DNA of 64,000 nucleotides from a bacterium (GTDB lineage: Bacteria > Bdellovibrionota_C > UBA2361 > RFPC01): the NCBI GenBank assembly GCA_030431715.1, contig JAUIIO010000007.1, forward strand, positions 33,756-97,755, given 5' to 3'. The position numbers are program-made. Shown here piece by piece: positions 45,001 through 48,000 of this stretch (its first letter is position 1; every line of letters begins with the position of its first letter).

Positions 45001-48000
45001 GCTTCCAATCGAGTTCATTATATGCAGTGTCAACGGCGTACACTTTTTGCGCGCCGTGTTGAAGGAGGCAGTCAGTAAAACCTCCGGTTGAGCTCCCGAG
45101 ATCGGCGCACGTGAGATCTTGGATTGAAACCTTAAAATGCTTAAGAGCTGCTTCAAGCTTCAGTCCGCCCCGGCTTACATATTTTGACGGGAGATCTATT
45201 CGAATAACGGTATCGGTCGGAAATTTTTGTGCTGCAGAAGTTACTACTTGATCGTTCGCCATGACCTTTCCGGCGAGTATCAAAGAGCGAGCAGTTTTCT
45301 CATCAAGCTCAGGATGTGCCCTATGAACATGCTCTAAGAGTTTAATTTTCTTTGGTTTATCAGACATTTAGAACTAGATGTAGCATGCCCCCTGAAACTT
45401 GTCGACAACCTCTCCGCGAGCTCCGTGGTCTCCTGTGTGAATTACATCTTAGGTTTATCCGAAATCTTAGCTCGCTTTACGACCAGAGATACGTACAAGT
45501 TCGCAGGATTTGAATAAACAGGGAGAGCGCGGAGTTCGCGGAGAGGGGTTACCTCAGGGGGTTATTTGTACGGTGGATGAGTTTTTCTATTCGTTTGAGA
45601 ATAAGCTTTTTCTTTGTGCCTTTTGAGCAGTAGTCATCGGCTCCAGCTGCGAGCAAATTGTACTCAGTATCTTCATCGTTAATGGCTGTGAGCATGAGTA
45701 CGGGAAGGTGAGTTCCTTTCGGTGAATTTCGTAGCTCTTTTACGAAATCTTCACCGTTCATGACGGGCATCATGAGATCACATACTATGAGATTTGTAGA
45801 GTCGTTCTTTAGCGCATGTAGAGCCTCTTTTCCATTTGTCGCAGTTTGAATTTCATATCCTTCCTTCTCAAGGACCATGGTAAGAATATCGAGCTGATCC
45901 TGATTGTCTTCAACTAAAAGAATTTTTGGTTTTACTGCCTTCGCTTTTGTTTCCTTAAAGAAGTACTCGTTGTCCAAGTTTTCAAGTTGTTCGCGTAGTT
46001 CAGCTTCAATAGGATTTTCTATATCTTGTCTTCCGGATCGATGAATAGCGGCGGCAAGAAATCCACTGCTAATACGTTTTACGGCCCCTAGAACCTCCTC
46101 GAAAGTTGTTACCTTTTGTTCAACCTTGGTGAGGCCATCTTCTAGCAGACTGCGTGCACCAGAGCGTGATGCAAGTTCAGATATCTGCGCAGCACTAGCA
46201 CCGTGCTCAAGGAGTTTATGAAGTTCAGGATTTATCTCAAGAGCACTTTGGAGATCTATCCAGCCCTGATACGCGCTGTGCTCACACACCTCACAACCTC
46301 TTCCAACCATATATTCGAAGTCTGAATCTGGTTGTAGTATTGGTGGTAGCGTTGTAATGAACTCACTTGAGATAGGTGTTCTTTTGGAGCATTTCTTACA
46401 AGATTGCCTTACAGAGCGACTCATAAATGAGGCAACAAGTAAGTTATAGAATCTCTTAATCGCTTCTTTCTCGTCTCGAAAGAGATTCCCCGTTTGCAAT
46501 ATAGCCTCAACAGAATCATCGCTATCGACGCCGAGAAGTATCAGGGATTCTTCTGCAAGTTCAAGTACTCGGGTGAGGTCTTGTGCTGTGCGAGCTTTAT
46601 AGCAGATTCGAGCATCGGGCCGGAGTGAATAGCACGTACGCAAAGCATCTTTTCCTGGCGTTCGTTCTCTATCAAAGTTACAGAGCACGATACCTTTTGG
46701 AGCAGCAATGATCTGTCCCAGTACGTTTGTATTATACTCAGCCTGTTGTTTTTGGAGGGTTTGAAGATCCGATTTTTCAGTTCTGATATCTTTAAAGAGG
46801 AGAACAGCCTCTTTGGTGTTCATCCGCTTCTGTCTCTCAACGGTGCAGCAAGCATAGGTATTAGCTTTGAGTTTCATGCGCAGCGTTTTGGGAAGAGAAG
46901 CGCTGGTCGCTCTGGTGTTGAGAGTTGTAGGTTCCGCAATTGTCTTTAGCTCAACGGAAGTTAGAATACTCTTCCAAAATGCCTGTGAGCAGGCGAACTC
47001 GCGTGAACTTAACTTCTCTCCTTTAAAGAATGTGAGGTGAAGAGCCTTTTCTTCCTTAAGGCTTAACTCTAATTTTGTTGCTTCTCCGCGGGTGGCCTCT
47101 TCTATGATGCGTGGGAGAAATTGCGAGATAGCGGTGCTCTCGATAGTGAGACTGCCTGAGCTCTGATTGTTTGTATTCGTATCCATTTTTTAAAACGCTT
47201 TTCCCCGGCATCCGTATTGGTAGTACCTTAGATCTTAGATGCGTACTTCTGCGGAGGCGTTCCAGAGAAGGTTCGAAAAAAAACAAATGCAATTAGAGGG
47301 TTAGGGGGAGAGGCGGGATTTCGTCCAGCTCTCTTTGCTCGTTTTCTTGTACAGGATGCGGTCGTGAAGTCGATTTAAGCGAAGCTGCCAGAACTCTATC
47401 TCAATGGGCTTTATCCTGTAGCCTGTCCAGTAATCAGGCCGGGGTATGGGTTGTTGCGCGAACTTTTCTTCGTACTCAATAACTTTATCTTCAAGCTCTT
47501 TTCTTGAGTGTAGCGTTGTGCTCTGTTCTGAAGCCCATGCTCCAATTTGACTTCGGCGTGGACGAGAGGAGAAGTACTGGTCAGCAGTAGAGTTGTCTAC
47601 GAATTCTACGTCCCCCTTTATCCGTACCTGACGCTGAGAGACGCTCCAATAAAAAGTGATAGAGGCTTTTGGGTGAGCTGAGAGGGCTGCTCCTTTTTGG
47701 GATTGAGTATTGGAGTAGAATACAAAACCTTCCTTGCTCCACTCTTTTAAGAGCACAATGCGTCCCTCCGGGTAATCATCTGTGCCGGTAGTCGAAAGAC
47801 ACATAGCATTAGGAAATTCACCGGAAAGTGATTTCTTCGCTTGGTTATACCACTGCTCAAATACCACAAATGGATCGGCATGAAGCGATTTTTGAGATAA
47901 TGGCTGGCGAAACCAGAGCGTTGGATGGGTGAGGAAAAAAAGAAGTTCGCGTGAAGTTGAAAAACGAGCCATGGGTTGTTCTCTGTACCTGCTGCGTTCA

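Follow-up and report, generated by a model that had tools for sequence, protein, structure and literature searches.

Can the motor ATPase of a type IV filament machine, once it has lost its catalytic site, be kept as the output domain of a response regulator? This question is raised by a gene on the minus strand (45549-47186) of the stretch of DNA analysed here, 64,000 nucleotides of a Bdellovibrionota genome (GenBank assembly GCA_030431715.1, contig JAUIIO010000007.1, forward-strand positions 33,756 to 97,755), which we call the window. The gene is an intact open reading frame with an ATG start and encodes a protein of 545 residues. By profile alignment and the modelled structure, its first 370 residues form a motor core of the PilB/GspE type that has been inactivated, comprising N2D and the C-terminal ATPase domain, with the fold kept; they are joined by a linker to a receiver domain (REC). 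The protein is a response regulator with a conserved pseudo-ATPase output domain that is maintained and not decaying. The parts of the gene, and a second gene of the window that serves as its reference, are as follows.

45549-47186, minus strand: whole gene, pseudo-PilB/GspE plus REC response regulator, 545 residues (open reading frame call, Pfam, family alignment, AlphaFold model)
46737-47156, minus strand: diverged N2D-like domain, residues 11-150, with no N1/MshEN upstream (hhalign, model, Foldseek)
46437-46736, minus strand: remnant of the RecA-like nucleotide-binding core, residues 151-250 (hhalign, model, family columns)
46647-46676, minus strand: short loop FDRERTPGKD, residues 171-180, in place of the deleted P-loop region (hhalign gap, strand spacing)
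46077-46436, minus strand: C-terminal ATPase subdomain, residues 251-370, with the tetracysteine module and the RSLLEDGLxK...TxFEE helices (Pfam, hhalign, conservation)
46284-46400, minus strand: tetracysteine motif C263-x2-C266 ... C298-x2-C301 (invariant in 76 of 76 relatives, spacing conserved)
45927-46076, minus strand: poorly conserved helical linker, residues 371-420 (model, conservation)
45567-45926, minus strand: receiver, residues 421-540, with E426, D427, D470, T500 and K522 (Pfam, alignment of 76 sequences)
45777-45779, minus strand: codon of the predicted phospho-acceptor Asp470 (column invariant in 76 relatives)
32466-34667, plus strand: active-looking paralog, a 733-residue ATPase with MshEN, T2SSE and REC domains (Pfam, NCBIfam, motif alignment)

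Domain composition

The proteins of the window were scanned against Pfam, NCBIfam and PADLOC. In the 545-residue protein, Pfam identified Response_reg (PF00072) at residues 422-533 (92.3 bits against a cutoff of 30.2) and T2SSE (PF00437) at residues 256-366 (36.8 bits against a cutoff of 24.9). The T2SSE match is partial, as it covers positions 275-369 of the 370 of the profile, that is, the last quarter only. No Pfam match to MshEN (PF05157) was found, and the protein begins at N2D, the N1/MshEN domain being lost altogether. The NCBIfam models of PilB and GspE were not listed for this protein, the best 25 of its 96 families being all receiver-based. PADLOC yielded weak receiver-type matches only and hence no link to defence systems, and beyond T2SSE and REC the three collections gave no other domain, motif or family. 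A scan for promoters and terminators produced counts at or below the expectation from shuffled sequence.

Among the features that mark membership in the PilB/GspE family (PF00437), the fold, the tetracysteine and a Pfam score above the cutoff are present, while Walker A, the Asp box with the Walker B glutamate, and the His box are missing. In both sequence and fold, the protein qualifies as a genuine response regulator. It resembles PilB/GspE in fold but lacks these three defining catalytic features, and it should not be classed as a secretion ATPase.

Anatomy of the inactivated motor core

A profile of 21 relatives was aligned by hhalign to a PilB/GspE profile, with the 733-residue paralog as the coordinate reference. 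Residues 11-374 of the protein matched residues 176-568 of the paralog, which comprise N2D and the C-terminal ATPase domain, with the probability of 99.85% (E = 1.5e-30). The AlphaFold (AF2) model has a predicted local distance difference test score (pLDDT) of 91 and a predicted template modelling score of 0.78. The best Foldseek matches of this model were PilB (5zfr and 5tsh), PilF (5oiu) and GspE (4pht), with E ~2e-19 over ~400 columns. In the model, residues 11-150 form a helix (18-33) and a beta-sheet with pLDDT of 90-98.

The core remnant retains three recognizable strands: residues 165-170, beginning with the invariant G165; residues 193-196 (RICY), the equivalent of the Walker B strand; and residues 215-220 (LILLGV), the equivalent of the His-box strand, followed by the near-invariant D224. 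Directly after the first of them, ~42-45 residues are missing compared to PilB (the hhalign gap is ~45). The missing segment comprises the Walker A P-loop, the P-loop helix, the Asp-box strand and the following hairpin, so that the pre-P-loop and Walker B strands are 28 residues apart, as opposed to ~70 in the paralog. A search for GxxxxGK[ST] through the entire 545-residue protein found none. The Asp box (EDPxE) falls within the deletion; the catalytic glutamate of Walker B (GEIRD) is absent, the strand reading RICYKART, and so are the His-box histidines (HxxxxxxH, LHTNDA), the equivalent strand being SLILLGVDSDD. Over the 76 relatives described below, the columns for the P-loop remnant, the catalytic glutamate and both His-box histidines are variable, and only G165 and D224 are kept. 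The dead domain cannot form a canonical nucleotide site.

The C-terminal subdomain (residues 251-370) is the best conserved portion of the pseudo-ATPase. It carries the tetracysteine motif and the helix LLEDGLTKVEQKVTTFEEV, which is invariant or nearly so in the 76 relatives.

A preliminary description of this stretch, made without database searches, had proposed a catalytically dead PilB/GspE derivative that keeps the tetracysteine cluster, the C-terminal helix and the receiver and is devoid of GxxxxGK[ST] and the His-box histidines. All of this is borne out by the deletion of the P-loop and the Asp box, by the variable glutamate and His-box columns, and by the invariance of the four cysteines. 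The two checks it had named for this point agree: the profile alignment contains no shifted intact P-loop, only the gap at its site, and the predicted structure is a confident PilB/GspE fold without the P-loop helix and the Asp-box strand. Its register has to be corrected. LILLGVDSDD (215-224), which it had read as Walker B, is aligned by hhalign to the His-box strand of the paralog (HLVISTLHTNDA), and it is ARICYKART (192-200) that aligns to the Walker B of the paralog (DIILIGEIRD); the reading was one strand off, and the same slip was made by BLASTP with the paralog. The segment TGNLFRDEKEA, taken for the His box, lies downstream of it. Finally, the T2SSE_N region had been called unrecognisable; indeed nothing of that domain is seen, but the reason is that it is absent, and residues 11-150 are a diverged N2D.

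The receiver

The linker is modelled as two helices (374-384 and 392-408) with pLDDT of 63-92. In the receiver pocket, E426, D427 and D470 are invariant over the 76 relatives, and T500 and K522 are conserved in at least 90% of them. The receiver looks to have all residues needed for phosphorylation and is predicted to be phosphorylatable, in agreement with the preliminary description, which had called it intact. A minor peculiarity is the motif GADDYCxK (residues 517-522), where C520 is conserved in at least 90% of the family; a cysteine is unusual at this place beside the conserved lysine.

Relatives and their conservation

The extent of the family was easily missed. A k-mer-indexed search with the protein returned only the protein itself and canonical PilBs, and one with the family profile returned the protein and a single relative, P0049. 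As these searches missed the relatives, they created a false impression of an orphan, and a full HMMER scan was needed. Using residues 1-410 as the query against 1.84 billion cluster representatives, we found 101 proteins at E <= 1e-10. At least 76 of the best 150 matches listed are full-length relatives, counted as representatives of clusters at 50% identity, of 495-600 residues and collinear with the protein; the deletion, the four cysteines and the receiver are common to them. Walker A (GxxxxGK[ST]) occurs in 0 of the 76, and all 76 have two CxxC pairs, 35 residues apart, near positions 255 and 290.

Invariant in the alignment of the 76 sequences are G165, C263, C266, C298, C301, E426, D427, D470 and P474; for T500, K522, D224, the GRGC motif and RSLLEDGL, conservation reaches at least 90% or falls just short of it. 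The mean pairwise identity is 50% in the receiver, 33% in the zinc/C-terminal subdomain, 19-21% in the former nucleotide core and 16% in N2D. This pattern is the reverse of the one in an active ATPase. The alignment shows the family to be under purifying selection, which is strongest on the receiver and the zinc/C-terminal subdomain.

Members of the family have been annotated, where named, as 'response regulator [Bdellovibrionales bacterium]', 'response regulator [Deltaproteobacteria bacterium]', 'CheY-like chemotaxis protein' and 'hypothetical protein [bacterium J17]'. A scan of genomes with an alignment of six sequences found family members only in metagenome-assembled genomes (MAGs) of the Bdellovibrionota type (loci L002-L005), most matches being full-length PilB-REC genes of Gemmatimonadota and generic receivers. 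So far the family has been found only in Bdellovibrionota, in uncultured MAGs, and is uncharacterised.

Origin from a PilB-REC ATPase

The 733-residue paralog has the motifs GPTGSGKT, EDPIEY, GEIRD and HTNDA, scores 423 bits to T2SSE, and has equivalog-type scores to PilB and GspE. BLASTP aligned it with the 545-residue protein over residues 215-539 of the latter at 28% identity (E = 4e-32), collinearly through the end of the C-terminal domain and the receiver. To compare receivers, we used a hidden Markov model (HMM) built from the receivers of the family, with the target left out. Family members scored 157-186 bits; the PilB-REC of the window, 138; other Bdellovibrionota PilB-REC proteins, mostly 100-145; Gemmatimonadota PilB-REC proteins, 93-109; and all other receivers in the fetched loci, including those from Bdellovibrionota, at most 109. 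By this measure the receiver of the family is closest to the receivers of Bdellovibrionota PilB-REC ATPases, and the score of 138 bits supports the kinship with the receiver at 32466-34667 that had been noticed from the sequence. Since the receivers of Bdellovibrionota PilB-REC proteins rank highest outside the family, the family likely arose by duplication of a Bdellovibrionota PilB-REC ATPase gene. With the dead core, the 733-residue paralog scored 82 bits and canonical PilBs 110-120 bits, the latter being preselected as the best of 1.8 billion proteins.

Fusions of MshEN, T2SSE and REC are common: clustered at 90% identity, those from Bdellovibrionales and Oligoflexia MAGs number more than 100, and Gemmatimonadota have orthologs at 35-40% identity. 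They are uncharacterised, and their annotations say no more than 'type II/IV secretion system protein' or 'PilB'. They share with the family the order of the ATPase domain, linker and C-terminal receiver, and their receiver is of the same subfamily; unlike the family, they keep MshEN and all ATPase motifs, while the dead proteins are ~180 residues shorter and their genes stand alone. PilB-REC fusions are thus abundant in MAGs of Bdellovibrionota and Gemmatimonadota, and yet we did not find them in the searchable literature.

Genomic context

The genes mentioned in this section are the following.

44639-45367: TlyA/FtsJ methyltransferase gene, flanking
47301-47972: pdxH, flanking
49806-50915, minus strand: soluble HisKA plus HATPase_c kinase with a degenerate C-terminal pseudo-receiver (Pfam; same conserved gene block)

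Near the gene, the window also contains genes for ABC-F, UDPGP, a CDF transporter, a soluble kinase, YaaA and YceG. The relative P0010, at 34% identity in the alignment of 76 sequences, lies in the same block (UDPGP, NTP-transferase, ABC-F, PdxH, the gene itself, FtsJ ... CDF, kinase, YceG), which means that the gene has been kept in place over deep divergence. Other members adjoin genes for lipoyl synthase and E2 (L003, L004, L084), ThiS/ThiG (L084, L087), TatA (L085, L089), or other housekeeping genes. In the window and in eight other contexts, with flanks mostly of 8-10 kb (less on one side or both in L086, L087 and L082), the gene looks monocistronic and stands alone among housekeeping genes. 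The idea of a paired arrangement of an active and a dead gene as a conserved layout finds no support in these contexts.

A hybrid kinase is encoded 3-6 kb from the gene in the window and in loci L083 and L082; it is not seen in the other contexts. The kinase at 49806-50915 is the positional ortholog of the one in the syntenic locus L083, and this proximity and synteny make it a candidate partner of the response regulator.

As a separate observation, the receiver-like part of this kinase has a tyrosine at the site of the acceptor aspartate (LIFLYGKSD, compared to LVLLDMQLPG in L083:15249-16850), and the kinase is without the ~135-residue N-terminal region of its L083 ortholog. It appears to be a kinase with a pseudo-receiver.

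Possible function

The reading that we favour combines these results: a dead PilB-type core and a receiver, derived from a duplicated PilB-REC gene, would form a phospho-switched binding module acting on type IV filament machinery. Its descriptive part is near certain; to the composite as a whole we would give an even chance. The dead motor domain would serve, without catalysis, to bind some partner of PilB-family motors, with platform or dock proteins (PilC/PilM-like) or the PilB-family motor itself as candidates. Phosphorylation of D470 by a histidine kinase would switch the binding or the oligomeric state; in this way the protein would gate a type IV filament machine at no cost in ATP. A more specific version, in which the protein is a phosphorylation-gated decoy of the pilus extension motor that, depending on the state of D470, occupies the PilC/PilM dock or inserts in PilB-REC rings, is doubtful.

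Several points weigh against the favoured reading. No pilus, Tad or secretion genes are annotated near the gene in the eight other contexts, and a six-frame scan of the fetched loci for PilB-type C-terminal domains retrieved, in the ranks inspected, only the genes of the family. The window copy lies 11 kb from the PilB-REC gene, with unrelated genes in between. The proposed link to type IV filament machinery comes from ancestry, and known response regulators that act by binding PilB or PilT lend it a precedent. Moreover, the N2D motif RxxxWPDxGD (residues 81-95), which most family members keep and which aligns with the PQDGR region of PilB, is missing from the protein and from P0009, its closest relative; the window copy is among the more eroded members of the family.

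The dead motor domain could instead have been recruited to a role unrelated to pili or secretion, for example with a new protein or ligand partner, in which case its ancestry would be uninformative. The stand-alone position of the gene among housekeeping genes fits this, as does the strong divergence of the surfaces outside the C-terminal subdomain. Still, the searches of Pfam, NCBIfam and PADLOC gave nothing beyond T2SSE and REC, and the retained portion is the one most typical of PilB/GspE. We consider such a role unlikely.

Another possibility is a poison or template subunit, a dead protomer that joins PilB-REC or PilB in mixed hexamers and tunes the motor by its phosphorylation state. PilB hexamers are held together by the packing of N2D of one subunit (n) against the C-terminal domain of the next (n+1) around the nucleotide. 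The family has kept the fold of both domains, probably shares ancestry with PilB-REC, and has an invariant zinc module; here, the active and the dead gene are also on one contig. For EpsE, the zinc module is reported to be needed for function (Rule et al. 2016, as cited in PMC11656802). On the other hand, N2D and the former nucleotide core, which provide the subunit interfaces in PilB, are the least conserved parts of the family (16-21% identity), the deletion takes out a helix and a strand of the core, and the genomic linkage is absent in the eight other contexts. Mixed hexamers are somewhat disfavoured because the regions of subunit contact are the least conserved and part of the core is deleted; we regard them as unlikely.

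If the protein were a phosphate sink, its receiver would compete with that of PilB-REC for the kinase, and the dead domain would be ballast or a localisation tag. The receiver is the most conserved part of the family, and it is nearest to the receivers of Bdellovibrionota PilB-REC proteins. However, a vestige of 400 residues is not expected to keep four invariant cysteines, RSLLEDGL and a confident two-domain fold over at least 76 lineages at 22-40% identity. The phosphate sinks known to us are single-domain receivers, unlike the 545-residue protein. The sink is likewise unlikely.

That the protein is a cryptic NTPase whose nucleotide site has shifted or become non-canonical is barely tenable: the RecA-like sheet is partly kept, with G165 and D224 conserved, but a GK[ST] P-loop is missing throughout, the deletion has taken away the P-loop helix and the Asp-box strand, and no conserved acidic residue stands at the Walker B glutamate, so we rejected a cryptic P-loop. 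A decaying pseudogene of a duplicated PilB-REC, suggested by the loss of every catalytic motif and the near absence of relatives in the k-mer searches, has next to no probability left and was likewise rejected because the open reading frame is intact, at least 76 full-length relatives have the same deletion and invariant residues, a syntenic ortholog exists at 34% identity, and the predicted fold is confident.

Comparison with known systems

The PilB, GspE (EpsE) and PilF ATPases (5tsh, 5zfr, 5oiu, 4pht, 1p9w) share with the protein the fold of N2D and the C-terminal domain, the tetracysteine zinc module and the C-terminal helices. By contrast, the protein lacks N1/MshEN, the P-loop helix, the Asp box, the catalytic glutamate and the His-box histidines, has an added C-terminal receiver, and its gene does not lie among those for pili or secretion.

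Direct binding of PilB or PilT is a known way for response regulators to control pili (PMC11181946, PMC10519157, PMC13507683, PMC11973254). Control of these motors by protein contact, phosphorylation-dependent and not transcriptional, is described for PixG/PixH and PATAN-REC proteins of Synechocystis, PilG/PilH of P. aeruginosa, and DrdR and EmvR of Xanthomonas (PMC11181946, 10.1101/2021.06.11.447907, PMC10519157, PMC13507683, PMC11973254). These regulators are single-domain, tandem-REC or PATAN-REC proteins, and none has a motor-derived domain. Contact of the 545-residue protein with a motor is a proposal. FimX (REC-PAS-degenerate GGDEF-EAL) and TadZ/CpaE (an atypical receiver with a ParA/MinD-like domain) combine receiver-type modules with non-catalytic modules derived from enzymes, and position or activate pilus ATPases (PMC8389850; for TadZ, 10.64898/2026.07.08.737194). 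Their folds are unrelated to that of our protein. In them it is the receiver that is atypical or degenerate; in our protein the receiver is intact, and the dead part is the motor-derived domain. Our literature searches turned up neither a REC-fused PilB nor a dead PilB paralog, and the word 'receiver' does not occur in a 2024 review of PilB regulation.

PilB/GspE motors are normally treated as active hexameric ATPases under the control of separate cofactors. A widely conserved, motor-derived pseudoenzyme coupled to a two-component receiver would represent a novel kind of output domain among response regulators, and also a new mode of regulation of type IV filament machines, in a phylum that needs pili for prey invasion. 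Should the decoy version be true, it would be a two-component brake or clutch on the type IV or Tad-like filaments of predatory Bdellovibrionota, built from a duplicated motor. Comprising at least 76 lineages, with a single clean deletion, the zinc site invariant and the phospho-acceptor intact, the family is well suited to studies of how a dead ATPase fold can be put to new use.

Other observations

Gemmatimonadota have a second, diverged PilB-REC paralog (L037, L039, L042 and L051, at match positions ~8500-10900 in each). At Walker A it reads GPARSGKT in L051 and L042 and GPARAGTT in L037, and in L039 the motifs read VPDGATGS, SDFTD and VCRGED; there is no deletion. One Gemmatimonadota MAG holds both the diverged paralog (L051) and a canonical PilB-REC (L023). 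Like the family described here, these paralogs are fused to a receiver, and in some genomes their Walker A, glutamate and His box have decayed; unlike it, they are of full length (717-808 residues), keep the N-terminal region, and decay patchily and not family-wide. The decay is probably an independent event, and REC-fused PilB duplicates may lose catalysis repeatedly.

In an Oligoflexia MAG, two full-length PilB-REC proteins, P0246 and P0291 (MBX7143506.1 and MBX7143100.1), have accessions 406 apart, and one is annotated as TadA; they are probably from one genome.

In the region 27780-36600 (plus strand) of the window, two TadE-like genes (203 and 600 residues) and a TadG-like gene of 733 residues precede the PilB-REC gene at 32466-34667, in contrast to the stand-alone dead gene. 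Downstream of the PilB-REC gene are those for a 627-residue protein without a family match and a 1037-residue M12 metalloprotease-like protein. This mixture of a PilB-type motor with Tad-type pseudopilin genes is unusual.

Two adjacent open reading frames, in different frames of the plus strand, encode Flagellin_N with an FG-GAP repeat (23661-24497) and three FG-GAP repeats with Flagellin_C (24593-25522). The pair (23661-25522) resembles a single flagellin gene that has a large FG-GAP insert and has been interrupted by a frameshift or by an error of assembly; alternatively, the gene is genuinely split.

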